A stretch of 64,000 nt of DNA from Nannocystis bainbridge. Lineage in GTDB: Bacteria; Myxococcota_A; Polyangia; Nannocystales; Nannocystaceae. The position numbers and the translations under genes are program-made. Numbering within the stretch: the first letter of the stretch is position 1; each line of letters begins with the position of its first letter. Positions 692 through 58,675 of the stretch are shown here, piece by piece. Below the pieces are notes generated by a model, which did not search any database, was not told where the DNA came from, and saw nothing but the letters and a program-made list of their open reading frames with translations. Where the stretch lies: contig NZ_JAQNDL010000005.1 of NCBI RefSeq assembly GCF_028368995.1, positions 128,001 to 192,000 on the forward strand, in the 5' to 3' direction.

Positions 692-849
692 CATGTGCCC
701 GCGGACAGGAGCATGTCCCATCCGCCATGTTCGCATGGACATGTCCTCTCGGACATGTCACGCCAAGGTGAACCCGACCGCAATTCCACGGCCGAGTCAC
801 TCCAGAGCCTCGTGACGCGTGAGCCCGACCGCCTTCGCACGCCCACGGG

Positions 850-921
850 ATGTCTTTCGGGACATGTTCGGTCGCGACCTCGGCATTCGAGCGCGATGTC
901 TTTCGGGACATGTTCGGTCGC
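850..921. repeat. 46-bp-period direct repeat, each copy carrying TGTCTTTCGGGACA
   Basis: ATGTCTTTCGGGACATGTTCGGTCGCG occurs at 850 and 896. Confidence 0.85.
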
Positions 922-1095
922 GGCTTTGGCGTTCGGGCGCGACGCTCGCCGAGTCCGCGATTCGGCCGCGCGTCGCTGTCGGCGCGCGCCCCCGAAAAAT
1001 TGCGACATGTGACAGCCCCGTCGCGGCTTCGCCCTCCGCGCGCCAAATTGTCGCTGAACGGCCCTCGCCTGGCCCCTAAAACCGCGAAAACCCGC

Positions 1096-1111
1096 TGGCA
1101 CGTCTGCTGCA
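1096..1111 (+). promoter_or_regulatory. Putative sigma54 (-24/-12) promoter
   Basis: TGGCACGTCTGCTGCA fits GG-N10-GC and lies just upstream of the ORF at 1127. Confidence 0.5.
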
Positions 1112-1126
1112 ACCGAGGCCCCCCAG

Positions 1127-1576
1127 GTGTCCCCGGTGTCTCAGCGCCTCGTCCGCCCCCTCCTCGATGGCCTCAGCCTGCTCGTGTTCCTGTTCGCCGT
1201 GACGTGCGCCGTGCGCCACATGCTCGGCCCCGGATGCAGCGGCGGCGCCTGCCTCGACAGCGCGCGCGACGAGCTGCAGCACTCGGCCGCGCTGCTGCGG
1301 CAACAGGCCCACCTCGACCTCGACGGCCTGCAGGCCAGCCTGGCCCACCCCGACGCGCTCACCGACCTGCGCGTGCCTGGCCGCCGCGGCCGCCTCGAGC
1401 CGCTCGACCCCTGGCAGCGCCCCCTCGTGCTCCGCCCGCTCGACGGCGAGTGGCTGCTGGAGCTGCGCTCGCGCGGTCAGGACGGCCGCCTCGACACCGA
1501 CGACGACCTCTATTTCCGCATGACCCCCGCCGGCCAGGCGGAATTCGACCCCGGGACCGCGCAGCACCTGCCCTGA
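1127..1576 (+). CDS. Membrane-anchored protein with a GspG-like (T2SS pseudopilin C-terminal) motif
   Basis: N-terminal TM helix. DPWQRP...LRSRGQDGRLDTDDD resembles the GspG C-terminal signature. Confidence 0.55.
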   Translation: MSPVSQRLVRPLLDGLSLLVFLFAVTCAVRHMLGPGCSGGACLDSARDELQHSAALLRQQAHLDLDGLQASLAHPDALTDLRVPGRRGRLEPLDPWQRPLVLRPLDGEWLLELRSRGQDGRLDTDDDLYFRMTPAGQAEFDPGTAQHLP

Positions 1577-1613: not shown

Positions 1614-2627
1614 TCAGCCCGAACGCCCGGGCGCCCCGTCGCCGCGCCGCAGCGCCGCCGCGATCGCCTGCGGGTCGAGGCGAAAGATCAGGTCCGTCTC
1701 CACGTACGGGCTGATCGCGCAGCCATCTCCGCCGCGCGGGTGCGGCATCTCGAAGAACGCGCGGGCGAACCCGACCTCGCGGCCGTTGAGGTAGCTACCT
1801 GTCCCCGAGGTCAGGTGGCACGGCACCACCCATCCCTCGGGCATCACCGTGGCGAAGTAGCGCCCCGCGTGACAGGCGGCGCAGTCGTGGAAGCGCGGGG
1901 CCCGGCGCAACCTGCTCAAAAAGCCAGGTGATGCCCCGAGCGGCAGCCCGCGCGCGCGCAGGCGCTCGAGCCGGTCGGCCACCTCGGCCAGCACCGCCGG
2001 CGTCAGGGCCGGGTGCAGCCCCGCCGCGGCGTCGAAGCACTCCTCGTGGGCCGGCTGGAAATACGCCCACACCCCGAGCGACCCGGCCAGCTCCGCGATC
2101 TCCTCGATCCGCCCGACGTTCCACGGCCCCACCACCGTGATCGTCGCCACCGACATGCCGAGCCCGCGCGCCTGCTCGATCGCCGCGATCACCCGCGCGT
2201 ACGAGCCCGGCCGCCGGCGCACCAGGTCGTGCACCGGCTCGGGCCCGTCGAGCGACAGCACCACCATGTCGAGGATGCCCGACATGTCCTTCAGGACATT
2301 GCCCGTGCGCCAGCCGTTGGTGTTCATCGAAGTGAAGCACCCGACCCGCTTGGCGTGGCCGATGATCCGCGGCGCGTCGCGGCGCAGCAGGACCTCGCCG
2401 CCGGAGAAGCTGGCCCGCGCCATGCCGGCCGCCCGCAGTTGATCGATGGCGCCGCAGAACTCGGCGTCGGTCATCTCGTAAGCAGCGCGCTCGGGGATCT
2501 CGCAGTACTCGCAACGAAAGTTGCAACGATGGGTGAGGATGAAGGTGACGCTGAACGGCAGCGCCCGCCCGACCACCCGCGCCGCCCCCAGCCGCACCAG
2601 GTCGCGCGCCTTGGCCAGCGCCGTCAC
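1614..2627 (-). CDS. Radical SAM protein with SPASM/twitch-like C-terminal cysteines
   Basis: CNFRCEYC (CxxxCxxC), SGGE, NTNG and SLDG motifs; C-terminal CAAC...PC...C. Confidence 0.9.
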   Translation of the reverse strand: MTALAKARDLVRLGAARVVGRALPFSVTFILTHRCNFRCEYCEIPERAAYEMTDAEFCGAIDQLRAAGMARASFSGGEVLLRRDAPRIIGHAKRVGCFTSMNTNGWRTGNVLKDMSGILDMVVLSLDGPEPVHDLVRRRPGSYARVIAAIEQARGLGMSVATITVVGPWNVGRIEEIAELAGSLGVWAYFQPAHEECFDAAAGLHPALTPAVLAEVADRLERLRARGLPLGASPGFLSRLRRAPRFHDCAACHAGRYFATVMPEGWVVPCHLTSGTGSYLNGREVGFARAFFEMPHPRGGDGCAISPYVETDLIFRLDPQAIAAALRRGDGAPGRSG

Positions 2628-2689
2628 GCCGCGCCTCCCTGCATCCGCGTCCGCGTCTGCCCCGGCCGCATAAGGTCGCGCCCCGTCAC
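2624..2689 (-). CDS. Mini-ORF 3 (MTGRDLMRPGQTRTRMQGGAA, 21 aa)
   Basis: GTG at 2689 overlaps the upstream TGA. Its own TGA overlaps the radical SAM GTG at 2627. GGAGG precedes the start. Confidence 0.4.
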   Translation of the reverse strand: MTGRDLMRPGQTRTRMQGGAA

Positions 2690-2760
2690 GCCGCCCCTCC
2701 CGACTGCACCGCCCCGCGTCGCAGCCGCTTACGCGCCCGCTCCAGGTCGCGCCCCGTCAT
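2686..2760 (-). CDS. Mini-ORF 2 (MTGRDLERARKRLRRGAVQSGGAA, 24 aa)
   Basis: ATGA/GTGA overlaps at both ends; GGAGGGG SD. Confidence 0.4.
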   Translation of the reverse strand: MTGRDLERARKRLRRGAVQSGGAA

Positions 2761-2840
2761 GCCGCCCCTCCCGACTGCACCGCCCCGCGTCGCAGCCGCT
2801 TAGGCGCCCGCTCCGGCCGCGCCAGGTCGTGCACCGTCAC
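2757..2840 (-). CDS. Mini-ORF 1 (MTVHDLARPERAPKRLRRGAVQSGGAA, 27 aa)
   Basis: GTG overlaps the UbiA stop and the TGA overlaps the next ATG; GGAGGGG SD. Confidence 0.4.
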   Translation of the reverse strand: MTVHDLARPERAPKRLRRGAVQSGGAA

Positions 2841-3745
2841 GCCGCCCCTCCCGGCGCCAGCGCGTAGATCACGGCCCCCGTCGCCAGCGCCAGCGCCCGG
2901 TGCCGCCGCCGCGCCGCCGCCGGATCGACCTGTCCGATCAGCCATGCCCCGAAGACCAGGCCCGCCGCCCCGCACAGGGCCGCCCACGGGCCCAGCAGCA
3001 ACGCCGCGGCCGCCGAACCCGCCAGCGCCAGCCAGCGCCCGGCCGCAGCCACGCCCGCGGGGCCCAGCCACTGCGCCGTCGTGAACACGCGCGCGCGCCG
3101 GTCCTCGGCCTCGTCGGCGCGCTCGTGGACCAGCTGGTTCTGCAGCAGCAGCGCCGTGAACACCAGCGACATGCCCCAAAAGCCAGGTGACCGCGGGGTC
3201 CCGACCAGCCCCAGCAGCGGCGCGAAGATGGCGACGTTGGCCAGCGTGCCGAGCCCCGGCAGCCGCTTGAGCCGCGGCCCGAGGCTGTACAGCGCCCCGG
3301 TCGTCAGGCTCACCGCCGCCGGCCCCAGCCCGCCGCTCTGCCCCGCGACCACCAGCGCCAGCAGCCCGCACGCCAGCGCCGGCACCACCGCCGCGCCGCC
3401 GACCTGCGCGCCGACCAGCGGGTTCTTGCCGCGCCCGTCGCTGCCGCGGTCGCCGTAGGCGTTGAGCCCGTAGGCGCTGGCCAGACACAGCGCGCCGGCG
3501 ACGCAGGCCCAAAGGACAGGTCCCATCGAACATGTCCCCGAGAACATGTCCTGAAGCGGCGCCCCGGCCAGCGGCAGCGGCACGAAGTGGGCCCACTGGC
3601 GCGCCCGCAGGGCCCGCAGCCCGAGCCTCACCCCGGCCCACGCAGGCGGCCTCGCATGGCCGGCGCGGCCGTCCCGGAGGCGCTCGGAGGTGGTCACGCC
3701 CGTCGACGATACCCCGCGAGCTCCCCAGGGTCCACGCCGCGTCAC
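2837..3745 (-). CDS. UbiA-family prenyltransferase (start uncertain: 3745, 3697 or 3631)
   Basis: Multi-TM protein. NAYGDRGSD...KNP and HERADEAEDRRARVFT match the two Asp-rich UbiA loops. Confidence 0.75.
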   Translation of the reverse strand: MTRRGPWGARGVSSTGVTTSERLRDGRAGHARPPAWAGVRLGLRALRARQWAHFVPLPLAGAPLQDMFSGTCSMGPVLWACVAGALCLASAYGLNAYGDRGSDGRGKNPLVGAQVGGAAVVPALACGLLALVVAGQSGGLGPAAVSLTTGALYSLGPRLKRLPGLGTLANVAIFAPLLGLVGTPRSPGFWGMSLVFTALLLQNQLVHERADEAEDRRARVFTTAQWLGPAGVAAAGRWLALAGSAAAALLLGPWAALCGAAGLVFGAWLIGQVDPAAARRRHRALALATGAVIYALAPGGAA

Positions 3746-3749
3746 CGCG

Positions 3750-4841
3750 TCACCCCGACCGCGGACGGCGCGGCAAGTCACGCGATCGACCTCGTCGCCG
3801 CCGCCACCCGATCCCGAGCCCCAACAGCGCCAGCGAGCCCCACGCGGGCCCGTCCTCGCCGATCCGGCAGCCCTTCTCATCCCCGGCCGGCGTCTCGCCG
3901 AACGGCGTGCCGTCCTCGTGCACCGGCGGCGTCAGGCACCCCCACAGCTCGACCTCCTCCGCCGTCACTTCCTCGATGCGCACCCGCGGCTCGCCGACCT
4001 CGTCGCGCCCGAAGCAGCGCGGCGGGCTCGCCACGGATGTCCCATCGACCAGGTCGGTCGCTCCGACGGTCACGCAGTATTCCGCCTGCGCCGCCGCGAA
4101 CGGCACCAGCCATTCCCCATGATGGCGGCCGAACATCTGCGACCGCGCGCCCGCGATCGGCTGCCCCTCCGCGTCGAGGGCCTGGGCCCACACCACGCTG
4201 TTGCCGGCCCGGGCCTCCGGCAGCGCCTCGAGCCCGATCGCCAGCGCCGGCAGCAGCTCGGTCTCGGCCGCCTTGCAGATCGACATCCCGCCGCAGCTGT
4301 CCGGCTCGCGCTCGCAGCAGACATGGTCGCGGCGAGCGCCCTGCGCCTCCGCGGCCGCGAACGACGCGATCGTCGGCGTCGCCAGCGGCGCCAGCGGCTC
4401 GGCCTCGACGACCACCGGGAACGTCACCTCCTGCGTCCCCGACTCGACCGATTCGACGATCGCGGTCGCCTGGTACTGCCCCGCCACCAGCGGCTCGGCC
4501 GGCCGCGCCACCACGACCACCGTCCACAGCGGCGCGCCGAGGTACACCTCTGCCTGCAGCGGCACCAGCTCGATCGTCGTGGCGATCGCCAGCCCGTCGC
4601 GCTCCAGCGTCACGCTCGCCGACGCCGCCGCGTCCGTCAGCTCCGTGGCGAACACGCTGCCGTACAGCGCGACGACCCCGCCCGGCGCCGTGACGAGCCG
4701 CTCGGGCGGGTTCGACAGCTCCCACACCTCGAGCCCGAGGCCCGGCGAACTCGTCGAGCAGGCGTCGGCCCGGCCCGGCGCCAGCGCCATCACGAGTCCC
4801 AAGAGACATGTCCCTAAAAACCTGTCCTGAAGTCTCATCAC
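3750..4841 (-). CDS. Secreted Cys-containing MYXO-CTERM surface protein
   Basis: Signal peptide; C-terminal GC...hydrophobic...WRRRR. Start overlaps the upstream stop (GTGA). Confidence 0.7.
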   Translation of the reverse strand: MMRLQDRFLGTCLLGLVMALAPGRADACSTSSPGLGLEVWELSNPPERLVTAPGGVVALYGSVFATELTDAAASASVTLERDGLAIATTIELVPLQAEVYLGAPLWTVVVVARPAEPLVAGQYQATAIVESVESGTQEVTFPVVVEAEPLAPLATPTIASFAAAEAQGARRDHVCCEREPDSCGGMSICKAAETELLPALAIGLEALPEARAGNSVVWAQALDAEGQPIAGARSQMFGRHHGEWLVPFAAAQAEYCVTVGATDLVDGTSVASPPRCFGRDEVGEPRVRIEEVTAEEVELWGCLTPPVHEDGTPFGETPAGDEKGCRIGEDGPAWGSLALLGLGIGWRRRRGRSRDLPRRPRSG

Positions 4842-6082
4842 GCCCGCCTCCGCCGCCGTCGTCCGGCGAGTAACAGCCCGATCAGCGCCGGCGCGCCGCC
4901 CGACGTCACCGCGCAGCCCGCCTCGCTGTCCTCGACCTCGACCGCGGTCACCGTCGCCTGTAGCGACCAGTCGACCCTGTCGCGCCGGAACGCCAGCGCC
5001 TCACTGAAGCGGTCGGGCGCCCCGGCCAGCTCCCCCGCCCACAACCAGCCGTCGGTCAACGCCAGCGACACGCCGAAGTAGTCCGGCGACTCGTGTCCGA
5101 CCTGCCCCGCGACCTTCCACGTCCCTCCCTCGCGGTGAAGGAAGCGGACGCGCGCCGGATCGCTGTCGTCGTCGGGGTCCTGGTGGAGCGAGATCGCGAT
5201 CGCCGCCCACTCACCGAACAGGGCGTGTGCGCGCCAGTAGCTGGCGTCGGTGAACGCCTCGATCGTCTGCGGCGCCGACCACCCGTCGGCCGTCCGCGAA
5301 TAAAGCCGCATCAACCCCTGCGGCGGCTCGATCGCCAGCAGCGTCGCGCCGTCGAACGCGTAGGCGTCGAGCTGCCCGTACTCGGGGACCGCGTAGGGCA
5401 GCACGCCCTCGAGCTGCCACGCCGTCCCCGCGCGCACCCACGTCTCGAACCCGTCCGGCGTCGGCGCCACCAGCACGCCGCGCGCCATCTGGAACGTCTC
5501 GCCGAATTGCCGCCGCGAGCCTGGCGCCCCGGCCAGGACCTGGCGGGCGACGATACCGGCGTCTGTCTTCTGGAACATGTGGATCTCGCCCGGATCCACC
5601 GCTCCGCCGCGCATCACGTACGGCGTGCCGACGGCGACCCATCCGTCGTCGACGGCGACCCGCGAGAAGTCGTAATCCTCGGCGCCCTCCGGCGGCCTCA
5701 GCTCCGCCAGCTCGGTCCACCCGGCCGCGCTGCGGCCGAACACCCACGCCTGCTCCGCGCCGTCCGAGTCGGCCCTGGCGACCGCCAGCAGGTCGCCCGC
5801 GAGCGCGACGCGGGTCCCGAACTCGGCCCTGAACTGCGGCGCGCGCGGCGTCACCCGCTGTTCGAAGCGCCATGTCCCTTCGACCAGGTGGTAGATGTCG
5901 ACCGCGCCGCCGTCGAATCGCGCGGCGTTGCTGAGCGGCGCGGCGATCGCCACCCGCTCGCCGTCGGCCGCGAGCTCGAGCCCGAAGTCGTCGCCGAGCT
6001 CCCCGGCGCGCGCGACCGCGGGCGCGACGAGCAGCGCGGCGACGACGAGACACCCCGATCGATACGAGCGCATCGTCGCCAC
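4838..6082 (-). CDS. FG-GAP-repeat beta-propeller protein with MYXO-CTERM
   Basis: Repeated FGxxLAL/VAI..GAP-like blades; signal peptide; GCAVT...LLLAGRRRRRRA tail. Confidence 0.75.
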   Translation of the reverse strand: MATMRSYRSGCLVVAALLVAPAVARAGELGDDFGLELAADGERVAIAAPLSNAARFDGGAVDIYHLVEGTWRFEQRVTPRAPQFRAEFGTRVALAGDLLAVARADSDGAEQAWVFGRSAAGWTELAELRPPEGAEDYDFSRVAVDDGWVAVGTPYVMRGGAVDPGEIHMFQKTDAGIVARQVLAGAPGSRRQFGETFQMARGVLVAPTPDGFETWVRAGTAWQLEGVLPYAVPEYGQLDAYAFDGATLLAIEPPQGLMRLYSRTADGWSAPQTIEAFTDASYWRAHALFGEWAAIAISLHQDPDDDSDPARVRFLHREGGTWKVAGQVGHESPDYFGVSLALTDGWLWAGELAGAPDRFSEALAFRRDRVDWSLQATVTAVEVEDSEAGCAVTSGGAPALIGLLLAGRRRRRRA

Positions 6083-7840: not shown

Positions 7841-8231
7841 GGCTCCCCTCCGCTGCAAGCCGGTGGCCGCGTTGATCTTTCTCAGGAAATCGCGACGGGC
7901 GGGCCGCCCTCCGTCAACTCGATTGGCCAACTTGATTGCGAAGACAACTCTATTGACATACTGGGGCTTGGAGACCTCACTTTCTAATTCCCGCGATTCT
8001 GCGCCTAAATACAGACTATGAAACAAACGCTCGTGCGATTCGACAACTTGGATGACACCGGCATCCACCTGCAGACCGCTCGAAACCGCTCTTATATAAG
8101 ATATAAGCCAACAGACGAGCCCATCGTTGCGGCCCCGCGCCCACACTCGACCTGTCCCCAAGGACATATTCATCCCGTTCACCGCGCCGGGGAGCCGCTG
8201 TCTCAGTCCCGGCTGCTCCGACTCGCCCTCG

Positions 8232-8339
8232 CTCGCCCGCCGCCCACTCCGACCGTCGCCACCTCGGAGCGCACCGCCCTCGCTCGCCCGTCCGCCGCCC
8301 TCGCCACTCCGGCCGTGGCCACCTCGGAGCGCACCGCCC
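8232..8339. repeat. Imperfect ~57-bp tandem direct repeat
   Basis: cactccg.ccgt.gccacctcggagcgcaccgccc occurs twice. Confidence 0.7.
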
Positions 8340-8452: not shown

Positions 8453-9697
8453 GTGCGGCTCGCCTACCTCTCGCACTACTTCCCGCCCGAGTCCAACGCT
8501 CCGGCCGCGCGTGTCCACGAGCTCTCGCGCGCGCTCGTGCGGGCCGGGCACGAGGTCCACGTCGTCACCGGCCAGCCCAACCACCCGCACGGCAAGATCT
8601 ATCCCGGCTACCGCGCCGCCGAGTACCGACGCGAGCGCGTCGACGGCATCGAGGTCCACCGCGTGCCCACGCTCCCGGCCGCCAGCCGCGGCGTCCTGCA
8701 ACGTGGCCTCGGGTACATGTCCCTTCCGACATCCCAGGTCGCCTTCGGGGCCGCGCGCCTGCCCGCCGTCGACCTCGTGCTGGCCACCTCGCCGCAGATC
8801 CTCACCGGCGTCGCCGGGCTCGCGCTGGCCCGCCTGCGCCGGGTCCCGTTCGTGCTCGAGGTGCGCGACCTGTGGCCTGACGGCATCGTCGCCGTCGGCG
8901 CGCTGAAGCCCGGCCACCCGATCGTGCGCGCCCTCGAGGTCGTCGAGCGCGGCCTCTACCGCGGCGCGGCCGGCGTCGTCTCGGTCACCGACAGCTTCGT
9001 CGATCACTTCGTCGCCCGCGGCGTCCCGCGCGAGCGCGTCGCCGTGGTCAAGAACGGCATCGACACCGCCCTGTTCGCCGCCGACGCCGCCCCGGCCCCG
9101 CTGCGGGCCCAGCTCGGGATCCCCGCCGACGCGCTGCTGCTGCTCTACTGCGGCACGGTCGGCATGGCCCAGGACGTCGGTCTGCTGGCCCGCGCCGCCG
9201 CGCTCGCCGGCCCCGCCGACGACCTCCACGTCGTCGTCGTCGGCCACGGCGTCGGCCTCCAGGCCCTGGTCGACGAGGTCGCCGCGCTCGGCGTCGGCGC
9301 TCGCTTCCACATCCTCCCGTCGGTGCCGCGGCGCGACGTCCCGGGCCTCATCGCCGCCGCCGACGTCAGCGCGGTGATCCTGCGCGACGAGCCGACCTTC
9401 GCCCGCTACCTGCCCTCGAAGATCTTCGAGGCCATGGCGATGCGCCAGCCGATCCTGCTCGGGGTCCGCGGCGAGGCCCAGCGCCTGGTCGAAGGGTCAG
9501 GTGCGGGCCTGGCCTTCACGCCCGGCGATCCGGCCGACGCGCTGGCCAAGCTGCGCACGTTCGCGGCGCTCGGTCGCGACGGTCGCGCGCGCATGGGCGA
9601 GGCCGCTCGCGCCCACGTGCTCGCGCATCACGACCGCGACCGCCAGGCCGACGACCTGGCCCGCTTCCTCGCGGGCATCGTCAGGAGCGGCGCATGA
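8453..9697 (+). CDS. Glycosyltransferase family 4 (WbuB-like)
   Basis: HYFPPE, GHEVHVVTGQPNHP, EVRDLWP and PSKIFEAMAM motifs; GTG start at 8453. Confidence 0.9.
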   Translation: MRLAYLSHYFPPESNAPAARVHELSRALVRAGHEVHVVTGQPNHPHGKIYPGYRAAEYRRERVDGIEVHRVPTLPAASRGVLQRGLGYMSLPTSQVAFGAARLPAVDLVLATSPQILTGVAGLALARLRRVPFVLEVRDLWPDGIVAVGALKPGHPIVRALEVVERGLYRGAAGVVSVTDSFVDHFVARGVPRERVAVVKNGIDTALFAADAAPAPLRAQLGIPADALLLLYCGTVGMAQDVGLLARAAALAGPADDLHVVVVGHGVGLQALVDEVAALGVGARFHILPSVPRRDVPGLIAAADVSAVILRDEPTFARYLPSKIFEAMAMRQPILLGVRGEAQRLVEGSGAGLAFTPGDPADALAKLRTFAALGRDGRARMGEAARAHVLAHHDRDRQADDLARFLAGIVRSGA

Positions 9698-10215: not shown

Positions 10216-10431
10216 CGGGTCGCGCTCGCACCTGTCCCGAGAGACAGCCGCCAGGCCGGTCCCCGCGCGAGGCACATGTCCCGGAAGACAGCTCGCTCCG
10301 CGCCGACGCCGTGGCGCTCGCACATGTCCCGCGGGACAGCCTCACCTACCGCCCGGCCGACCCAATGAGTTCGCCCCCGGAGGCGCTCGCTCGGAGCTCC
10401 CGCGGGGGCGTGCGTCGCCGCGGCGACGGGC

Positions 10432-16722: not shown

Positions 16723-17149
16723 GCGGCGCAACGTAGCACGCCGCGCGCCTTCGCGCTTTCCGCGCATGCGCCCTCGCGCGTGCGGGACCGCCGTGAGCTA
16801 CCCTCGCGCGGCCCGTCCGCGGGCGTCGCTCCTCGCCGCAGCAAATCGACCACCACGCCCGCGCGACCGCGACATCTCGCGGCGTGGACACCCATCGCTC
16901 GTGCCCACGATCACCGGCCCGCCGCCGACCCTCCGGCGGCCTCGACCGCGCGACGCAGCGACGCATCCGCCGAGATCCCGGCGCAGTCTTCGCCGCGTCG
17001 CTGCGGGCGGACACATGACCTCCAGGATCCCTCGCCCACGCCCGCCGCGGACCCGCGGGTGACGATCCGAGCCCGCGCCGCCGCGGCGAAAATGACATGT
17101 CCGTTCCGACATGCGCCCTCGGACATGCCCCGAACGACAGGATCGACGC

Positions 17150-18496
<1,347 letters not shown>

Positions 18497-18765
18497 GTCG
18501 CCCGTAGCCTAGCCGACCCGGCGCGCGCCCGCCTGCCCCCCACGGCGCCGGCTCACCCGCGGCCTCGCCAGCGGCTCCTCGCGCCTGCCCCGCCGCCCCG
18601 GATATTGACTTCGCCGCCCGGCCCGGGGACACCCGAAGACACGTGCCCGCCCCGCCCCCGCCCCGCGCCGCCGACCGCCCGCCCGCCGCGCGTGCCCCTT
18701 CGGACATGCCCGATCGGACCGGTCCCGAAGGACCTGTCCTGAGCGACATGCCCGAGGAGCCATCC

Positions 18766-25200: not shown

Positions 25201-25477
25201 GTTTTCGACGCGTCCCCGCGTCGCTACTCACCCGCGGCGACGAACGCCCGTCAGCCGCCGGCGGTCCGCCGATCCGCGCAGCCCGACGATCGATTCGACG
25301 AATGGGCGACATGTCCGAACGGACATGTCACGACATTCGCCGAATCACCGCACAATCGCGGCGACTCGTCTTGCGATTCGGATCAAGGCGACCGCGACAT
25401 CCATCGCGGTCGAGACGCCGACCGACGCCGCGGGGCCGCTCTCGGATTCTCGGATCGGACCGCCCTGCGGTCGCGGA

Positions 25478-26785: not shown

Positions 26786-27320
26786 CGTGGGTCTCCGCCG
26801 AGACCATGGATGCCATCGTCCGGTCGCGCCAGCGGTCGCTGCAATTTCGTCGCGCTGCGGCACGACCACGGTCGAGCTCGCCAGACGGCCGCGACCCCGC
26901 TCGGGCCGCTGCGCCGCCGTTCGCCCCGGTGGTGCATCGCCGGCTGTCCGTTCGGTCAGGTCCAGATCGAGCCCGCAACGAGGTCGCTCTCGTCGCGCTC
27001 CGCCGACCACCGCGCATCCTTCACGGTCCTTCACCCACGCGGGGCGCTCATCTGTCTCTCGAGACATGTCCCCGTCGACCCTCACGGTCCTCGCCGCAGC
27101 GGACCTTGCGCAGGTCGCCCGCGTCCGCCTGCTCGCTGGAGCGAACGGCGCGGCCCTTCGCTTTTGCAGGGCCCGGGTCATCCGCAGGCGCGACGGGCCT
27201 CAAGTCCACCATGATCGCGGCAGCGCATCGACCTCGCGGCCGCGGCTCCTCGGCGCCACCGCGCCGGCGCGCCGGGCCACGAGCGCGAGCGCCCCGCCCA
27301 CGCACAATGTGGGCGCTCCC

Positions 27321-30090: not shown

Positions 30091-30155
30091 GGTCGCACCT
30101 CGGGACATGTCCTCCAGGGCATGTCCCGGGCGCCATGTCCTTCACGACATGCCCT

Positions 30156-30479
30156 TTACGCCAGGTCGACCGGCCGGAAGCGCGCGAACGGCCGCCCCAG
30201 CTCGGCCACCTCCCCCGGCGCGATCAGCTGGCACACGCCCTCGAGCTGCTGCCACAGCTGTTGCACCACCGGGTTCTCGTGGGCGCGGCGGGCTGCGTCC
30301 TCGGAGGCCCACTCGAACACCTCGAGGATGGTGCCGTCGTTCGCGCGCATCACGATCGGCTCGCGCTCGGTGGCCAGGTCCTGGGCGCGCAGCACCGGCA
30401 GGTGGCCGCGCAGGAGCTCGAGCAGCTCCTCGGCGCGACCGGGGAGGGGGCGGTAGCAGGCGATGACGATGACTCCCAT
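30156..30479 (-). CDS. Small dimeric alpha/beta-barrel (ABM-like) protein
   Basis: YRPLPGR...EVFEWAS..A...AH pattern. Confidence 0.7.
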   Translation of the reverse strand: MGVIVIACYRPLPGRAEELLELLRGHLPVLRAQDLATEREPIVMRANDGTILEVFEWASEDAARRAHENPVVQQLWQQLEGVCQLIAPGEVAELGRPFARFRPVDLA

Positions 30480-30510: not shown

Positions 30511-31416
30511 TCAAGGACGCGCGGGCGTACGCGACACGCTGGCCGCGTAGATGGCCGCCAGCGACAGCGCCGTGCCAGCGGCCTCGACCATCCCGAACGG
30601 CTCGGCGAACACCAGCACGCCCCACAGCGTGGCCAGCACCGGCTGCAGGAGCAGCAGCAGCGAGCCGCTCGCGGCCGGCACGTGCGGCATGCCGCGCGAG
30701 ATGAGCGCCCAGCCGCCCACGTGCGCGCCGACCCCGAGCAGCAGCAACAGGCCGAAGTCGCTGGAGCTCGCCACCGCCAGCGGCTCGCCGGTCGCCAGCG
30801 CCGCCAGCACCAGCAGCGCCGCCGCCGTCGCGCTCGACACGAACAGTGCCGCCGCGACCCCGAGCGGCCGCTCGCCGCGCTGGGCTGTCCGCAAGGACAG
30901 GTAATAACCGGCGTAGAACACACCCGTCAGCAGGCCCAGCAACACGCCCTGCAGGTGGACCGGGCTGCGCTCCAGCCCCGGCAGCGCCAGCATCGCCGTG
31001 CCGATCAAGGCCAGCAGCGCGCACACCCCGAGCCGCCGCGTCAGCCGCTCGCCGAGCAGCAGCGCCGAGAACAGCGCGACCCAGAACACCTGCGTGTTGG
31101 CCAGCAGCGTCGCCAGACCGGTGCCCGAGTACAGGATGCTCTTGTGCCACACGAACAGGTCGCCGGCGAAGCACGCGCCGGCCAGAGCCGCCCACGCGGT
31201 CGCCGGGCCGCGGCGCACGGCCTGTCCGTTCGGACCTGTCCGCGAGGACAGCCACGCCAGCGGCAGCAGAGCGGCCGCCCCGAGCCCGCAGCGGTAAGCC
31301 CCGATCGCCGCCGGCCCGAGCGCGATCCACTTGACGAACAGCGCCGTCACGCTGATCACCGCCGCCCCGAGAGCGACCAACACCAGCGGCGCGCGCGGGG
31401 GAGAAAGAGGGGCCAT
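30511..31416 (-). CDS. DMT/EamA family transporter
   Basis: About 10 TM helices in two EamA repeats; LLQPVLATLW. Confidence 0.9.
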   Translation of the reverse strand: MAPLSPPRAPLVLVALGAAVISVTALFVKWIALGPAAIGAYRCGLGAAALLPLAWLSSRTGPNGQAVRRGPATAWAALAGACFAGDLFVWHKSILYSGTGLATLLANTQVFWVALFSALLLGERLTRRLGVCALLALIGTAMLALPGLERSPVHLQGVLLGLLTGVFYAGYYLSLRTAQRGERPLGVAAALFVSSATAAALLVLAALATGEPLAVASSSDFGLLLLLGVGAHVGGWALISRGMPHVPAASGSLLLLLQPVLATLWGVLVFAEPFGMVEAAGTALSLAAIYAASVSRTPARP

Positions 31417-32082: not shown

Positions 32083-32975
32083 TCCGACGCGACCTCCACC
32101 AGCACAACCGCCTCGCCTGGGACGCCGCCACTCCCGCGCACAGCAGCCACAAGCACGACCAGGCCGGGTTCCTCCGCGGCGGCGGCACCACCCTGTTCGA
32201 CGACGAGGTGCACCTGGTCCTCGGTACAGGTCCCGAAGGCCATGTCCTGGAGGACATCCGCAAGTCCGGCGCGCGCCCGCTGAGCGGCCTGCGCCTGCTG
32301 CACGGCGCGTGCAATGCCGGCCAGGACACCCTGTCGCTGGCGCAGCTCGGCGCGGAGGTCACCGGCGTCGACATCAGCCCGACGGCGATCGCCGCCGCGC
32401 AGACGCTGGCCGAGGAGACCGGCATCCCGGCCCGCTTCGCCGTCGCCGACCTCTACGACTGGCTGCCGGCGCAGGAACCGGAGTTCGACGTCGTCTTCAT
32501 GACCTACGGCGCGCTGCTCTGGATGTCCGACCTCGACGCGCTGTTCGCCGCGCTCGCGGGGGTCCTGAAGCCCGGCGGTCGCGTCGTCGGCCTCGAGTTC
32601 CACCCGCTGGCGATGATGTACGACCAGGGCCGCCTCACCTACCCGTACAGCGGCGGCGCGCACGTGGTCGGCGAGGCCGGCATCGGCGACTACGTCGCGG
32701 CCTCCGGGACCGCGCTGGCGCCGTCCGGCTTCCTCGAGGGCGAGGTCGACTTCAAGAACCCGCACGCCACCCACGAGTTCTCCTGGGGCGTCGCCGACAT
32801 CCTCGGCGCCCAGCTGCGGGCCGGCCTCGTGCTCGAGGTCGTGCGCGAGTACACCTACGCCAACGGCTGCAAGATCTGGCCCGACATGGTCGAACAGCCA
32901 GGTCGCCGCTTCACCACCACCAGCCCGGCCGTCCCGCCGCTCATGCTCGGCTGGTCGTCGCGCCGGCCCGGCTGA
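32079..32975 (+). CDS. Class I SAM-dependent methyltransferase
   Basis: LH..CNAGQDT, VTGVDIS, FDVVF..YGAL.W and LKPGG motifs; GTG overlaps the GNAT stop. Confidence 0.9.
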   Translation: MIRRDLHQHNRLAWDAATPAHSSHKHDQAGFLRGGGTTLFDDEVHLVLGTGPEGHVLEDIRKSGARPLSGLRLLHGACNAGQDTLSLAQLGAEVTGVDISPTAIAAAQTLAEETGIPARFAVADLYDWLPAQEPEFDVVFMTYGALLWMSDLDALFAALAGVLKPGGRVVGLEFHPLAMMYDQGRLTYPYSGGAHVVGEAGIGDYVAASGTALAPSGFLEGEVDFKNPHATHEFSWGVADILGAQLRAGLVLEVVREYTYANGCKIWPDMVEQPGRRFTTTSPAVPPLMLGWSSRRPG

Positions 32976-33104
32976 CACGGTCATACGATGCATGGGACAG
33001 GTTCGGCGCTCGGATGAACCTGTCCCTTCGGACATCTTATCGCCCCGCCGAAACGGCGATGCGCACCTGGCCCATGAGCCAGGTGCGCATCGACACGCCT
33101 CACC

Positions 33105-44226: not shown

Positions 44227-44536
44227 GCGAGCCGCGAACTCGCCCTCTCTCGGTCCGGCCCACTCGCCTCGCGTCCCTGCAGCCCTCCGGTCGAGCCCGC
44301 CGCGCGCCCCTCCTTCGTCCGAGCTTCGATGCGAGCGCGCTCGCGCCCGTCGCACACATGTCCCGAAGGACAGACGGTGCGCAACCGCCTGCACCGATCG
44401 ACCGCACCAGTCCGCGGTCGCGAGCGGCGGCGGGTCCGCGACGTGTGAGATTCGCCAGGGGTTCCGCCGACCCGCCCCGCTTGCGGCGGCGCGCCGCGAT
44501 TTGCCACCATGCGCGCGGAACTCGGCCAGTCCTCCC

Positions 44537-49629: not shown

Positions 49630-49725
49630 GCGCCTGCCCCTGCGGACAGGCGCGACCGAATCGCAGCGCCTGCCCTTTCGGACAGGCGCGACCGAATCGC
49701 AGCGCCTGCCCGTTCGGACAGGCGC
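49630..49725. repeat. Three 36-bp tandem REP-like hairpin repeats
   Basis: GCGCCTGCCCnTnCGGACAGGCGC at 49630, 49666 and 49702, with an identical linker GACCGAATCGCA. Confidence 0.9.
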
Positions 49726-49732
49726 TCGTCGC

Positions 49733-51742
49733 TCAGCTCTTGCCTGCCCCTTCGGACATCCGCATCACGAACGCGAACTCGATCTTGCGGCGCTGCACGC
49801 TGCTGTCGATCACCTCGACGATCAGGCGGTCGCCGACCGTCAGCGTGAAGCCCGAGCGCTGGCCGACCAGCTTGACCCCGGACGGGTCGAGCTGGAACGG
49901 CTCGCCGCGGTCGCGCTCGAGGTTGCCCGTGCGCACCAGCCCGTCGACGAACGGCCGGTCGACCTGCACGAACGCCCCGGGCGAGCCGATGCCCGACACC
50001 GTCGCCTCGAACCGGTCGCCCACGCGGTCGCGCATGTAGAGCGCCGCGAACAGCGACTTGCTGTCGCGCTCGGCGTCCGCGACCGACCGCTCGCGCTGGC
50101 TGCTGCGGACCGACTGCTCGGCCGTCTGCTCGCGCTGCGGCATCGGCGGCACCGGCTCCGGCCCCGGCAGCCCGCCGATCTTCGCCAGGTGGGCCTTGAG
50201 CACGCGGTGCACGATCAGGTCCGGGTAGCGCCGGATCGGCGACGTGAAGTGCGCGTAGGCGTCGCTGGCCAGCGCGAAGTGGCCGACGTTTTCGACGCTG
50301 TACTGCGCCTGCGCCATCGCCCGCAGCATGAACATGTGCAGCGCGGCGCGGCGCGGGTGATTCTGCGTGCGGTTCAGGAACTTCTGCGCTCCGCGCGGCG
50401 TGGTCAGCTTCTCCGGGTCGGCCGTGGCGCCGAGCGCCTCTGCCACCGTCGCCAGCTGCTCGAGCCGCACCGGGTCGGGCGCCGCGTGGATCCGGTACAC
50501 CAGCGGCAGGTTGGCCCCGACCGCCACGCGTGCGACCGCCTCGTTGGCGGCCAGCATCAGCTCCTCGATCAGGTTATACGCCCGCGCCAGCTCGGCGCTG
50601 GCGCGCGTCGGCACGATGTCGCGGATGCGCTCCGGATCGTCCTGGTCGAGCAGCACCTTGATCTCGGGCACGTTGAGCTCGATCGCCCCGAGCCGCAGCC
50701 GGCGCGCGCGCAGCCGGTCGGCCGCCGCTCGCAGCGCCGCGATCCGCGAGCGGACCTCCGGCGGTTGGGTCGGCTGCGAACCTGTCTCTTCGGACAGCAC
50801 GGCCGCGGCCTCCTCGTAGGTCAGGCGCTTGCGGCTGTGGATGACCGCCGCGCGCAGCACCAGCTCGTCGATCTCGCCGTCGCCCGCCAGGCGGAAGCTC
50901 GCCACCATCGCCAGGCGGTCCTGCTCCGGCACCAGCGAGCACATGTGCGACGACAGGGCCCGCGGCAGCATCGGGATCGAGCGGTTGGGCAGGTAACACG
51001 AGAAGCAGCGCCAGGCCGCCTCGCGGTCGATCGCCGTGCCCTCGCGGACGTAGTGCGACACGTCGGCCACGGCCACGTGCACGCGCACGGCCCCGTGCGC
51101 CCCCTCGCCCGCGATCGCCTCGACGCACACCGCGTCGTCGAAGTCGCGCGCGTCGACCGGATCGATCGTCATGAACTCGAGCCCGCGCAGGTCGGCCCGG
51201 TTCGTCAGGTCCTCCGGCTGCACCGTCTCGGGCACCGCCTCGGCCTCGGCCAGCACGTCGGGCGCGAACTCGGGGTCGATGTTGTACTCGAGCAGGATCT
51301 TCGCCTGCTCGGTCGCCAGCGTGTTCGGCGGCCCCAGCAATCGCTCGATCCGGACCGCCCCGCCGTCGCGCGTATCGATCGGGTAGCGCGTGATCGTGGC
51401 GACCACCACGATGTCCTCCGGGACATGTGTGCCGTCCTCGACGTCCGGTCGCAGCAGCACGCGCGGGTCGTCGCACTCGAGCACGCGGACGCGGCCGATC
51501 CGCCGCACCTGGCCCGTCAGTCGCGTGCGACCGCGGCGCACGATCCGCACGATCTCGCCCTCGAAGCCCTTCTCCGACGGCCAGCTGTAGACCTCGACCT
51601 CATCGCCGTCCAGCGCGCCGCTGAGGCGTCCGCGCGGGATGAAAACAGTTCCTTCACCATCGAGGCGTTCGGCGAACCCGAACCCTCCTGGGTTGACCAC
51701 CAGCCTCGCGGCCGCGGCCCCCTTTTTCTCTTCCTTGCTCAC
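49733..51742 (-). CDS. rnr: Ribonuclease R (RNB family)
   Basis: GFGF cold-shock domain, TIDPVDARDFDDA, IEELMLAAN, HFTSPIRRYPDL and a C-terminal S1 domain. Confidence 0.92.
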   Translation of the reverse strand: MSKEEKKGAAAARLVVNPGGFGFAERLDGEGTVFIPRGRLSGALDGDEVEVYSWPSEKGFEGEIVRIVRRGRTRLTGQVRRIGRVRVLECDDPRVLLRPDVEDGTHVPEDIVVVATITRYPIDTRDGGAVRIERLLGPPNTLATEQAKILLEYNIDPEFAPDVLAEAEAVPETVQPEDLTNRADLRGLEFMTIDPVDARDFDDAVCVEAIAGEGAHGAVRVHVAVADVSHYVREGTAIDREAAWRCFSCYLPNRSIPMLPRALSSHMCSLVPEQDRLAMVASFRLAGDGEIDELVLRAAVIHSRKRLTYEEAAAVLSEETGSQPTQPPEVRSRIAALRAAADRLRARRLRLGAIELNVPEIKVLLDQDDPERIRDIVPTRASAELARAYNLIEELMLAANEAVARVAVGANLPLVYRIHAAPDPVRLEQLATVAEALGATADPEKLTTPRGAQKFLNRTQNHPRRAALHMFMLRAMAQAQYSVENVGHFALASDAYAHFTSPIRRYPDLIVHRVLKAHLAKIGGLPGPEPVPPMPQREQTAEQSVRSSQRERSVADAERDSKSLFAALYMRDRVGDRFEATVSGIGSPGAFVQVDRPFVDGLVRTGNLERDRGEPFQLDPSGVKLVGQRSGFTLTVGDRLIVEVIDSSVQRRKIEFAFVMRMSEGAGKS

Positions 51743-54689: not shown

Positions 54690-56582
<1,893 letters not shown>

Positions 56583-56600
56583 CGCGCGGCCTCCCGGCCT

Positions 56601-56634
56601 GAAGAGCTCCGCGACGACCGTCGCGGGGCTCTTC
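56601..56634. terminator. Hairpin terminator between convergent genes
   Basis: GAAGAGCTCCGCGACG-AC-CGTCGCGGGGCTCTTC. Confidence 0.7.
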
Positions 56635-56672
56635 GCGCTTTCGGACATGTCGCAAGGGACATGTCCGTAAGA

Positions 56673-58517
56673 TCAGTTCGCCTGGCGTCGCCGTCGCAGC
56701 AGCAGCCCGAGCAGCCCGAGCAGGCTGGCAGAGCCTGCCCCTCCGGTCATGTCACTGTGGCAGCCGCAGCCCTCGCCCCCCGTCTGCCCGCCAGTCTCGC
56801 CCGCGCTGTCGCCGGTCTCGCCGCTGCTGCCGGCGCCGCCCGTCAGCGGGCCCGTGACCTCGCCGCCGCCGGTCGTCGGCGCCGTCGTCGTCACCCCGCC
56901 GCTGTCACTCGCGCTGGCGCCCGTGCCGGACGGCTCGGAGGTGCCCGTGCCGCCGTCGGTCGTCGGCTCGACCCCGTAGGCCGTCATCGTCGCGTTCGAG
57001 TCCACCACCAGCGCATTGACCCCGGCGCGGTACTGCAGACGCGCGCTGTTCTCGTACACGCCGGGCGCGCCGAGCTCCACGATCACGCTGACCGTCTTGC
57101 CCTCGCCCTCGCCGAGGTTGCCGAGCTGCCACGTCACCACCCCGTCGACGTGGCTGCCGTCGTCGGTCGCCGACACGAACGTCACTCCGGCCGGCAAGGT
57201 GTCGGTCAGCACCGCGTCGAGCGCGGGCATCACTCCCATGTTGACGAACGTGATGTCGAACGTGACCTCGGGGACATCCGAGGTCGCAGGCGCCGACTTG
57301 GTGACCGAGATCTGCGGCGACCCCTCCGCCGTCGCGCATGGCGCCTCGAACAGCGAGTTGAGGAACAGCCGCGTCCCCTGCGTGGTCGGGTTCTGCGAGA
57401 TCGGCAGGTCCACGTCGTACTCGTGCCCGCCGAGGTAGCTGACCTTGCCCGCCGTCAGGCACGCCGCCGACAGCCCCGGCCCGACCTCCAACCCGGGACA
57501 GATGCCGTCGACGAAGCCGGTCATCCATACGTCGTTGATCCCGATCGACGTCCCCGCCTCGGTGATCATGACGATGTCGCTGCCCTTGTAGCTGTCGCCC
57601 TCGGGCAGGCTGTACGCCGGCTCGCTGCCGCCGACCGACTGGAACGGCCCGTCGAGCTGACCGAACGGCGTGTCGGTCTCGTAGTACTCGTACATGTCCG
57701 GTTGCTGGCCGATGAGGAACCCGTTCGGCGTCAAGAAGTGCCCGTGCGCGGCCAGGTTCTCGAACGCGTTGACCGCCTGACACTCGGCGAACAGGTGCGT
57801 CGGATGGGTCAAGAACTCGCGCATCTCCGCCACGACCTGCTGGTTCTGCTGGGCGTCCTTCACCCCCCAGTGCATCGACATGAACTGGCAGTAGACCGGA
57901 TCGCCTTCAGCGTCGAACAACGCCCCGTCGCGCAGGTTGTCCTCGGTCGGCCCCGAGAGCTCGTCCGGATCCAGCATGTCGGGGCTGGTGTCAGGCCAGC
58001 CGTAGTCGCCGACAGAGTCGGGGATCCCCGCCGCCATCATGTACTTGCGCGCGATCTTCTGGTTGCCGTCGGCCATCATCGCGATCGTCGGCGCCACCAC
58101 CAGCGTCGCCGCGACGTCGCTGGCGAACCCCTCGCTCGCCTCGTGGACCGCCACGTCGGGGTTGTCCTGCTGCCACGCCTCGACGATCGGCAGCGCGTCC
58201 GCGGCGTCGGCCGCGTCGATCACCCACGGCCCGCCGCGGTAGCCGTGGCCGTCGATCGTCGCCCCGCTGGCCACGTCCGTCGCCGAGGTGGTGAAGTCGG
58301 CCTCGGCGTGGCCCTTCCCGGCCTTGATCGCCCAGTGGACCGGCACGCCCTGGCGCAGCAGCTCGTACACGAGCCCATAGGCGCGCAGCATGCCGAGGTC
58401 CTGGTAATCGGTGTCCATCGGGATCACCAGCGAGCCGGCGGCGAAGTCGGCCGCGCTGGCCGGCGCCGGCGCGAGCGCGAGCGCCACGGCGACAGCAGAA
58501 ACTCCTGTACGCATCAT
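56673..58517 (-). CDS. DUF11-domain MYXO-CTERM surface protein
   Basis: Signal peptide; DUF11 (VTKS...LTDTLPAGVTFVSA...VTWQLGNL); GCGC...LLRRRR tail. Confidence 0.82.
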   Translation of the reverse strand: MMRTGVSAVAVALALAPAPASAADFAAGSLVIPMDTDYQDLGMLRAYGLVYELLRQGVPVHWAIKAGKGHAEADFTTSATDVASGATIDGHGYRGGPWVIDAADAADALPIVEAWQQDNPDVAVHEASEGFASDVAATLVVAPTIAMMADGNQKIARKYMMAAGIPDSVGDYGWPDTSPDMLDPDELSGPTEDNLRDGALFDAEGDPVYCQFMSMHWGVKDAQQNQQVVAEMREFLTHPTHLFAECQAVNAFENLAAHGHFLTPNGFLIGQQPDMYEYYETDTPFGQLDGPFQSVGGSEPAYSLPEGDSYKGSDIVMITEAGTSIGINDVWMTGFVDGICPGLEVGPGLSAACLTAGKVSYLGGHEYDVDLPISQNPTTQGTRLFLNSLFEAPCATAEGSPQISVTKSAPATSDVPEVTFDITFVNMGVMPALDAVLTDTLPAGVTFVSATDDGSHVDGVVTWQLGNLGEGEGKTVSVIVELGAPGVYENSARLQYRAGVNALVVDSNATMTAYGVEPTTDGGTGTSEPSGTGASASDSGGVTTTAPTTGGGEVTGPLTGGAGSSGETGDSAGETGGQTGGEGCGCHSDMTGGAGSASLLGLLGLLLRRRRQAN

Positions 58518-58675
58518 GAGGGTTTGTCTCCGCCCGTTGGACAGAATCCCCGGAGGTCGCTCCAACCCAACTTCACGACCTGTCCCTCAGGACATCTTTG
58601 GCGCTCGGTGCTCCACTGTCCCACAGCGGCGCCGCGGCTGTCTCTTTGGACAGATACACTGCCCGGTCAGCGAGC

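Follow-up and report, generated by a model that had tools for sequence, protein, structure and literature searches.

Short DNA motifs present in very many copies, such as the highly iterated palindrome HIP1 of cyanobacteria, the repetitive extragenic palindromic (REP) elements and the DNA uptake sequences, count among the longest-standing puzzles that bacterial genomes present. REP elements and bacterial interspersed mosaic elements (BIMEs) belong, with their REP-associated tyrosine transposases (RAYTs), to the gamma-proteobacteria, and REP elements are imperfect palindromes with a conserved head tetranucleotide, GTAG or CGTC. The uptake sequences of the Pasteurellaceae (USS) and of Neisseria (DUS) are oriented, non-palindromic and without phased arrays. 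Here we describe a palindrome, TGTC-N6-GACA, that recurs throughout a 64,000-nucleotide stretch of the genome of Nannocystis bainbridge (contig NZ_JAQNDL010000005.1, positions 128,001 to 192,000; hereafter the window) and of which HIP1 (GCGATCGC) is the nearest described counterpart. [quoted passage not shown]

Like HIP1 and the alternate highly iterated palindromes, the Nannocystis motif is short, lineage-limited and over-represented by a factor of tens to hundreds, lies both in and between genes, and is conserved at orthologous sites. Unlike HIP1, which is a contiguous 8-mer with cognate orphan methyltransferases, it is bipartite around a fixed 4-bp centre that appears to be unread, is set in strict 14-bp arrays, has a ninefold higher density in intergenic DNA than in genes, is biased towards gene 3' ends, and could be linked to no methyltransferase. 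It resembles REP elements and BIMEs in being made of palindromic units of about 20 nt (flanks included) that number hundreds to thousands, cluster, lie after genes or between convergent genes and vary in copy number, but it differs from them in lacking a RAYT gene (0/11 Nannocystis genomes), in placing more than a third of its exact copies in genes, in keeping loop length invariant while loop sequence is free, and in showing neither a conserved head tetranucleotide nor a conserved flank. USS and DUS are comparable in their frequency of about one copy per 1–3 kb, their restriction to a genus, their accumulation by substitution and their position in variable protein segments of genes; between genes they form inverted pairs near terminators, and the Nannocystis motif is unlike them in being palindromic and arrayed in phase. 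Operators of PadR-family regulators share its ATGT-N8-ACAT dyad, and several sites in a sister-genus genome (G011) lie just upstream of genes. PadR operators are, however, a handful of sites in promoters, whereas the Nannocystis sites number thousands and are found for the most part in arrays and at 3' ends. Only 58% of units keep the A of ATGT, and no PadR-family gene was recognised in G000, the genome studied here, or in G001, a second Nannocystis genome.

The motif is real and strong and, as far as the literature searched goes, undescribed; the original prediction, made from the letters of the window alone, had likewise not recognised it, and no paper searched, in a literature from which most subscription journals were missing, contained the motif or treated a palindrome of Nannocystis or other myxobacteria. 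It has a defined anatomy, a biased distribution, constrained arms and neither RNA-type nor transposon-type signatures, and it fails the tests that define REP/RAYT elements, miniature inverted-repeat transposable elements (MITEs), intrinsic terminators, CRP-type sites and a PadR regulon. We tentatively read each unit as the recognition site of a dimeric duplex-DNA-binding protein, with the geometry of a PadR operator, that was amplified genome-wide from an ancestral operator.

Anatomy and abundance of the unit

The window contains 26 exact copies of TGTC-N6-GACA, where 100 dinucleotide-preserving shuffles give 0.79 (maximum 4; 0/100 reach 26). Twenty-five start positions had been listed in the original prediction together with a chance rate under one per 64 kb; all 25 proved to be exact matches, and a further copy starts at 59269. 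Across the genome searched (G000; 11.05 Mb, 5 contigs, 71.5% G+C), TGTC-Nk-GACA occurs 3,663 times at k = 6 and 29–155 times at every other k from 0 to 14, so that the supposed enrichment at k = 6 alone was borne out. The rarest spacing of the scan is N8, with 29 copies, which is the geometry of CRP/FNR-type sites such as the MrpC site GTGTC-N8-GACAC. A different word, GAGTCAC, is not enriched here (3 occurrences against 9.8 expected).

A position table of the copies extends the motif to a complete palindromic unit, (A)CATGTCC-NNNN-GGACATG(T), with a 14-bp core around a 4-bp centre. Exact TGTCC-N4-GGACA is found 1,987 times in the genome, compared with 2–16 times for N2, N3, N5, N6 and N7 spacers; with one mismatch there are 4,258 matches (98–322 for five control spacings) and with two there are 7,530 (2,058–5,923). 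Approximately 6,200 copies have at most one mismatch, and from the counts by mismatch against the control spacings we put the family at roughly 6,000–9,000 members. The length of the spacer is thus fixed, as had been claimed, but its sequence does not vary as freely as was first thought, since in most copies the centre opens with C or T and closes with G or A. Outside the arms, the A of ATGT (58%) is replaced by C in 37%, and ATGT-Nk-ACAT occurs 2,000 times at k = 8 and 16–63 times at k = 4–7 and 9–12. ATGTCC-N4-GGACAT has the form of the dyad ATGT-N8-ACAT, which two sources give as the canonical inverted repeat bound by repressors of the PadR family (LmrR, PadR and LadR; PMC4517056, PMC10295242).

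Units abut one another in phase. The word formed where two meet head to tail, GACATGTC, occurs 14 times in the window against 0.90 expected and 2,237 times in the genome, and the numbers of unit pairs (at most one mismatch) at 14, 28, 42, 56, 70 and 84 bp are 485, 274, 165, 58, 28 and 16, which is a strict ladder. The junctions and the exact 14-bp period originally reported are both upheld. A phased neighbour accompanies 23% of the 2,608 in-gene units and 42% of the 3,483 intergenic ones, at a background chance of 0.0012 per position. Arrays within genes show no preference for three-unit runs, which would preserve the reading frame. Beyond about 4 bp the position table contains nothing except the echo, at 14 bp, of adjacent units, and no conserved flank of the MITE type was seen, so the motif is not one MITE or REP family with conserved flanks, the finding that would have undone the original prediction. 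The centres of adjacent units are identical in 3.9% of cases, compared with 1.7% for random pairs; since adjacent centres are unrelated, the arrays are not recent copies, and tandem duplication was rejected as their origin.

Copies between and within genes

Genes were predicted with a home-made codon-usage caller, which is crude (8,030 genes, 84% coding) and whose unit-bearing calls were checked against Pfam for seven genes of the window. The 3,663 exact copies divide into 2,281 between genes (1.31/kb), 1,336 inside genes (0.14/kb) and 46 that straddle a gene edge, in line with the earlier claim of copies in and between genes; 62% fall in the 16% of the genome that is non-coding and 36% inside genes. 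What had been missed earlier is a strong bias towards gene 3' ends, together with arrays in lineage-specific in-frame insertions. Considering gaps of at least 30 bp and units with at most one mismatch, a unit is present in 57% of 1,256 convergent, 27% of 3,441 co-directional and 16% of 1,419 divergent gaps, and the N5 control pattern in 1% of each class. Gene 3' ends are about four times richer in units than 5' ends, and in co-directional gaps the unit lies at a median of 71 nt after the upstream stop and 192 nt before the next start.

Along the genome, the number of units per 50 kb is over-dispersed (variance 162, mean 28). Density and G+C are correlated (r = 0.57), and the stretches with fewest units are lower in G+C. 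The map relative to origin and terminus that had been proposed gave no pattern in a crude look: density per 200 kb ranges from 39 to 176 without a gradient along contigs, and the sole GC-skew switch falls inside contig C3. The densest clusters, of 9–12 units (G000:C2:2066860-2067347, C2:1217435-1217808 and C5:660088-660635), are longer tandem repeats of 36–60 bp with one unit each; several lie within large predicted genes, in which peptide repeats resembling P-V-P-E-D are encoded by the unit, and no telling neighbour gene was seen beside them, the surroundings being repetitive coding or intergenic DNA.

The intergenic units of the window illustrate these forms. A phased array of degenerate and exact units (694..762) begins just 3' of a + strand gene that ends at 691; it contains an exact unit at 742-755, has GACATGTC junctions at 738 and 752, and folds as DNA at -9.2 kcal/mol over 735-762. 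A 46-bp tandem repeat of 2.0 copies (849..942) carries one exact unit per copy (851-864 and 897-910), and a 36-bp repeat of 2.7 copies with 95% match (49630..49725), directly 3' of the RNase R gene, carries the degenerate unit TGCCCCTTCGGACA in each. Convergent gaps hold a four-unit phased array at 30104..30160 (period 14, 4.1 copies, including the exact unit 30136-30149), a single exact unit at 33021..33034, and the exact unit 56648-56661 with junctions on both sides (56641..56668). A further convergent gap has three exact units (10233, 10277 and 10325; 10233..10338) alongside a separate conserved GC-rich hairpin, and its orthologues show how quickly intergenic copy number shifts between species, with 3 (G000), 1, 1, 0 and 0 units in five species. 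A co-directional gap (58581..58652) is shared by two exact units, which start at 58581 and 58639, and in another, the exact unit at 44359..44372, 133 bp after the upstream stop, keeps its position in 5/5 close species while the centres vary. Single exact units also occupy intergenic gaps at 8153..8166, 27053..27066 and 17098..17111, the last with arms kept and centre replaced in close species, and one at 18735..18748 abuts the predicted start of the gene 18748-19830. The exact unit at 25312..25325 is flanked on both sides by GACATGTC junctions and lies about 110 bp from two tRNA genes on the - strand (25032-25104 and 25128-25200; Rfam, 55.9 and 60 bits). Some repeats of the window are not built from the 14-bp unit, namely two intergenic tandem repeats at 2673-2823 (71 bp x 2.1) and 8224-8363 (60 bp x 2.2), and the 72/141-bp repeats at 47739-48098 inside a gene rich in G-G-E-E-type codons.

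Inside genes, TGTC-N6-GACA occurs 1,336 times and the other spacings 15–118 times; synonymous-codon shuffles give 87–102 copies (about 94) and codon-order shuffles 39–63 (five replicates each), an excess of about 14-fold over the synonymous null. All three reading frames are enriched (670, 563 and 103 copies, against 0–35 in the frame-matched controls k = 0, 3, 9 and 12), and the motifs use otherwise rare codons. These figures (3,663 against 29–155 overall and 1,336 against about 94 in genes) rank the motif with the HIP-like palindromes, for which an excess of at least 15-fold in coding and non-coding DNA is the mark. In-gene copies are not an artefact of over-called ORFs, because the nine copies of this kind in the window are spread over seven genes whose Pfam domains are clear (radical SAM, GT4, sigma-54 activator, EamA, methyltransferase, RNase R and ThuA/BPL_N-like).

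The unit at 2285..2298 in the radical-SAM gene (1614-2627, - strand) keeps its position in 5/5 close species, two of them with one arm change, and no orthologue of that gene was found in the outgroups; the unit at 59269..59282, in the gene 58676-59473 (- strand), has identical arms and a different centre in 5/5. The EamA transporter gene contains an exact unit at 30886..30899 and a two-unit array at 31221..31250 (exact unit 31237-31250). Five in-gene sites could be compared with outgroups. In the AAA+ lid of the sigma-54 activator, a two-unit phased array (17456..17496; exact unit 17476-17489) encodes D-V-L-A-D-M-S-S-R-(T/P/A) immediately before a conserved segment, where distant Nannocystis genomes have the equally long A-V-L-A-E-L-A-R-R-S; the array was made by about 14 substitutions within 30 nt, with no insertion or deletion, and in some of the five close species either unit has decayed through synonymous changes. 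The GT4 glycosyltransferase site (8718..8731) reads Y-M-S-L-P-T-S where the outgroups have Y-A-A-M-P-T-A, again at equal length. One site in the RNase R gene (51412..51425) encodes H/P-V-P-E-D-I (H in the window) in a variable segment without insertion or deletion; it is kept in six core-clade genomes, absent from ten more distant ones, and uses the rare codon CCT in five core genomes and CAT in G000. The second RNase R site (50783..50796) adjoins a 4-codon insertion relative to the outgroups. In the methyltransferase gene, three phased units (32215..32256; exact unit 32243-32256) fill a 21-codon segment that is found only in Nannocystis, in G000 and in the distant congener G009, and is absent in G002, G011 and G013; both genomes have the three units, and all centres differ between them. 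From these five comparisons, both substitution and the insertion or expansion of arrays occur. Copies built by substitution cannot have come from transposition.

Hyper-abundance in one lineage, in three reading frames and at the cost of rare codons would be expected if a molecular drive like that of HIP1 or the uptake sequences wrote the motif into all DNA with no function for the single site; candidates for such a process are mismatch repair linked to methylation, biased gene conversion, and a preference for DNA with the motif in uptake and recombination. Individual sites that decay by synonymous changes in some species agree with this, as does their being kept at orthologous places, a feature also reported for HIP1 (PMC5861425). 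A blind drive, however, predicts neither the crowding of 62% of exact copies into non-coding DNA nor the fourfold 3'/5' bias, and strict 14-bp phased arrays are foreign to HIP1 and to uptake sequences. We consider a drive of this sort possible but rather unlikely.

Arm constraint and the form of the signal

Picking sites in G000 and counting differences can by itself halve the apparent rate of change, and for this reason constraint was measured on 89 sites aligned in three species, counting changes in one species where the other two agree; the same counting rule was used for arms, centres and flanks and corrects for ascertainment. On the first branch (changes in G005) arms changed at 23/813 positions (0.028) and flanks at 240/3645 (0.066; p = 1e-5), and on the second (changes in G001) the figures are 39/829 (0.047) and 280/3685 (0.076; p = 0.003). 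The arms evolve 1.6–2.4 times more slowly than the flanks, which the centre does not. The third codon positions taken separately give 7/228 for arms against 74/920 for flanks on the first branch and 13/234 against 103/949 on the second. Whole sites were retained in 53/59 cases (0.90) on the first branch, where 200 neutral simulations gave a mean of 0.65 and a maximum of 0.76, and in 53/66 cases (0.80) on the second, where the corresponding values are 0.58 and 0.74 (200 simulations). By arm rate and by retention alike, the motif is conserved beyond neutral expectation, as HIP-like palindromes are.

The centre is at least unconstrained. It changed faster than the flanks on the first branch (32/278, 0.115; p = 0.003) and not significantly differently from them on the second (21/267, 0.079), often in bursts of 2–4 nt; the acceleration, seen on one branch only, is suggestive. 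Loop inversion was rejected as the cause of centre changes (0/107 aligned sites). A fast centre with multi-nucleotide bursts, the two-fold symmetry about an unread 4-bp centre and the accumulation between convergent genes could all be accommodated if the unit were the target of an enzyme acting at the centre (a restriction-modification system, a nicking or homing nuclease, or a recombinase- or type IIA topoisomerase-like enzyme), with the arms positioning it. Positive supercoils build up between convergent genes, and type IIA topoisomerases cut with a 4-bp stagger. The acceleration was not reproduced on the second branch (21/267 vs 280/3685), though, and the searches described below found no candidate enzyme; the centre keeps its length throughout, an outcome that error-prone break repair would not guarantee, and genomes normally avoid the targets of restriction enzymes and do not accumulate them. 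We judge an enzyme target of this kind very unlikely.

Recognition of the duplex is favoured over a hairpin by the invariant loop length, the single-arm variants, the weak stems and the lack of strand dependence. Hairpins tolerate loops of 3–6 nt. Most variant units are altered in one arm only. Base-pair covariation is weak: where three inner stem pairs were checked, complementary double changes exceed independence modestly, by 1.25–2.8 times (for instance 146 with about 86 expected at pair 2-11, and 127 with about 101 expected at pair 4-9), and the innermost pair, 5-8, has no excess; for C:G at the outermost pair the factor is about 7.5. Although the best units with their flanks fold at -8.5 to -10.9 kcal/mol as DNA, many exact units have no stable stem, one example being the exact-unit window 10270-10297 at only -1.4 kcal/mol; as RNA, the 20-mers have a median of -7.3 kcal/mol, compared with -20 to -25 for other hairpins in the same gaps. 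The composition of the centre is complement-symmetric, with no asymmetry relative to the transcribed strand.

The same data bear on whether the unit is an intrinsic bidirectional terminator or another RNA-level signal. The gap distribution of 57%, 27% and 16% is terminator-like, a perfect palindrome would give the same stem on either transcript, and at one of the five stem pairs G.U-compatible variants are more frequent on the sense strand (111 vs 76, p = 0.013). Pooled over the pairs, on the other hand, G.U-compatible single changes in co-directional gaps number 316 sense and 277 antisense, which is not significant. An intrinsic terminator is a stable GC-rich stem with a U-tract after it on the transcribed strand, and neither part was found: the stems are weak, and 617 units have 2.02 T downstream and 2.00 on the mirror side. 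Strong hairpins other than the units (-20 kcal/mol or stronger) are equally frequent in convergent gaps with and without units when sequence is matched (0.79 vs 0.76, 0.79 vs 0.83 and 0.92 vs 0.89), so units do not take the place of other hairpins; an apparent replacement of terminator hairpins in an unmatched comparison vanished once the amount of sequence searched was matched. Rfam reported two tRNAs in the window and no family match at any unit, and the exact copies in genes, 1,336 in number, are conserved. We give almost no credence to the reading as a terminator or RNA signal.

Another reading is the spread of a REP- or BIME-like stem-loop 3' of genes, by an unrecognised enzyme or by slippage, with a role as mRNA 3' stabiliser, gyrase site or termination aid. 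The position close behind stop codons and in 57–68% of convergent gaps, the clusters and arrays, the variable copy number of orthologous gaps, arrays that take the form of in-frame insertions, the moderate DNA folds of the best units with their flanks and the partial excess of complementary double changes all point that way. REP/RAYT elements are strictly extragenic, however, whereas 1,336/3,663 exact copies here lie inside predicted genes, some of them made by substitution without insertion or deletion, and the position table contains the palindrome and its 14-bp echo and no head tetranucleotide. The Y1/RAYT transposase family PF01797 has no match in 11/11 Nannocystis genomes, nor in G011 and G013, and is present in 17/41 genomes searched. 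An invariant loop length, the dominance of single-arm variants, the absence of conserved flanks and the unrelated centres of adjacent units also speak against it, and the last two, with in-gene copies that lack an insertion or deletion, distinguish the units from MITEs. On balance we find a REP-like element unlikely. The preference of the original prediction for a dimeric binder or a HIP1-like system over an RNA hairpin or mobile element is supported in part, by the fixed spacing, the lack of strand asymmetry, the weak covariation, the missing U-tract, the copies made by substitution in conserved domains, the arm constraint, the missing RAYT gene and the few, partly operator-like copies of the sister-genus genome G011.

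Taxonomic range, candidate readers and meaning

The 16-mer ATGTCC-N4-GGACAT was searched across 59 genomes of the family, those of Nannocystis being at least 80% complete. It occurs 652 times in G000 and 25–576 times in nine other Nannocystis genomes (10/10 positive), 23–34 times in 4/4 genomes of the sister genus g2 and 11–102 times in 5/5 of g4, these two being the nearest genera by RNase R identity. Forty genomes of 11 other genera have 0–1 copies each, as do sixteen genomes of other families, and the reversed control pattern gives 0–1 everywhere. Within Nannocystis, the six genomes closest to G000 carry 389–652 copies and the more distant or fragmented ones 16–78; G001, a single-contig genome, has 576. 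Four fragmented bins (G002, G004, G006 and G008; 260–1,440 contigs) have 16–55 exact 16-mers compared with 389–652 in near-complete genomes; the low counts may in part reflect assembly breaks at arrays and not biology, and the units probably add to such breaks in Nannocystis metagenome bins, which hold far fewer copies than complete genomes. The 20 public sequencing runs listed as containing the region are contigs of soil, wetland or root metagenomes, with no RNA reads of a culture among them.

In the g2 genome G011 (local G+C 0.54–0.64), 20 of the 23 exact sites were fetched and ORFs were called crudely. The palindrome reaches about 22 bp there (A-A/T-C/T-ATGTCC-N4-GGACAT-G-T-T) and has AT-rich centres. 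In at least 7/20 of the fetched loci the site precedes a predicted start codon by 16–51 nt, and the DNA around it is AT-richer; one site directly precedes a Shine–Dalgarno-like AGGAGG. The genes 3' of the sites encode two DUF4215 proteins, an eCIS_core protein, a 7TMR-DISM adenylate/guanylate cyclase, a TonB_C protein, a fatty-acid desaturase and family-less ORFs; neighbouring ORFs with a family match code for enzymes, for signalling proteins and for proteins that are secreted or at the cell surface, and in Pfam not one of the 20 ORFs beside the sites has a DNA-binding family. This pattern looks like an ordinary operator with a small regulon. At three loci (L185, L191 and L193) the palindrome lies just upstream of the two cysteine-rich DUF4215 proteins and the eCIS_core-domain protein, which may form a small regulon of secreted proteins. 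In the sister genome G013, 8/10 fetched loci (L170-L177) are near-identical copies of a multi-copy element with the 16-mer ATGTCCCTCAGGACAT in its coding region, so its count of 22 overstates the number of free sites.

On the reading that we tentatively prefer, a two-fold symmetric, probably dimeric protein would bind the unit, each monomer reading one TGTCC arm and leaving the 4-bp centre unread. The ancestral state would be the tens of copies still seen in the two sister genera, several of them near gene starts in G011 as an ordinary operator would be, and in the core Nannocystis clade the site would have multiplied to about 6,000–9,000 copies. New copies would have come from point substitutions, even in conserved protein domains, and others from phased 14-bp arrays that grew or were inserted, where adjacent dimers could sit next to one another and perhaps bind cooperatively. 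Selection or a continuing drive would keep the arms, and copies would accumulate where they are least harmful or most useful, that is 3' of genes and above all between convergent genes. In Nannocystis the system may mark or insulate the places where transcription units end, or may organise the nucleoid.

The search for such a reader went through several families. At E<=0.001, PadR (PF03551) has no match in seven Nannocystis genomes, G000 and G001 among them; matches were found in 4/11 Nannocystis genomes only (G003, G005, G007 and G010), and the weak matches in G000 look HxlR-type by eye. Because the family is absent from G000 and G001 and patchy in the genus, the geometry is PadR-like but the reader would not be a recognisable PadR protein. 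An HsdM/HsdS pair is kept in 11/11 Nannocystis genomes (G000:C1:2005000-2009000, locus L207 4035-8002); no HsdR was recognised next to it with Pfam or NCBIfam, and the pair may be an orphan Type I methyltransferase. Its conservation would suit a methylation-linked drive. Against that, the two target recognition domains of HsdS look unlike by eye in the translation, so that an asymmetric target is predicted; HsdS is also present in motif-free genera and missing from G011; and Vsr occurs in 1/10 Nannocystis and 0/9 sister-genus genomes. In the genomes searched, none of Y1 transposase, HsdS/HsdM, PadR and Vsr has a distribution that follows that of the motif. The co-occurring DNA-binding protein or methylase that the original prediction had proposed to look for was therefore not identified among the candidate families checked.

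Several observations weigh against an amplified operator with a dimeric reader. No reader emerged among the candidates searched (PadR, HsdS/HsdM, Vsr, Y1 and the G011 neighbours), and PadR had no match in seven Nannocystis genomes. A richness of 3' ends over 5' ends is unusual for operator sites, and the gap profile is the classic one of REP elements and terminators. A centre that outpaces its flanks on one branch and changes in bursts is not predicted for a passive binding site, some complementary double changes do exceed expectation, and the in-frame insertions of phased units (21 codons in the methyltransferase, 4 codons in RNase R) point to an insertion or expansion process.

In a bolder form of the preferred reading, which we consider improbable, the operator would have escaped into a self-amplifying genome-wide system whose reader also cuts, nicks or distorts the centre and so makes it mutable; templated repair would seed new phased units and thereby place arrays in intergenic DNA and, without breaking the frame, in genes, and the arrays would act as boundary elements at the ends of transcription units.

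Among hyper-abundant short motifs this one is unusually informative, since its bipartite geometry is fixed, its arrays are phased, it strongly favours gene 3' ends and the selection on its arms can be measured, and it has a clear phylogenetic onset, from tens of copies in two sister genera to thousands in cultivable Nannocystis. It also shows a DNA-level signal reshaping conserved protein sequence, as in the lid of the sigma-54 activator, and the units are relevant to the genetic engineering of Nannocystis, whose members are natural-product producers. If the escaped-operator reading were true, it would represent a new way for a bacterial genome to write and keep a short DNA signal.

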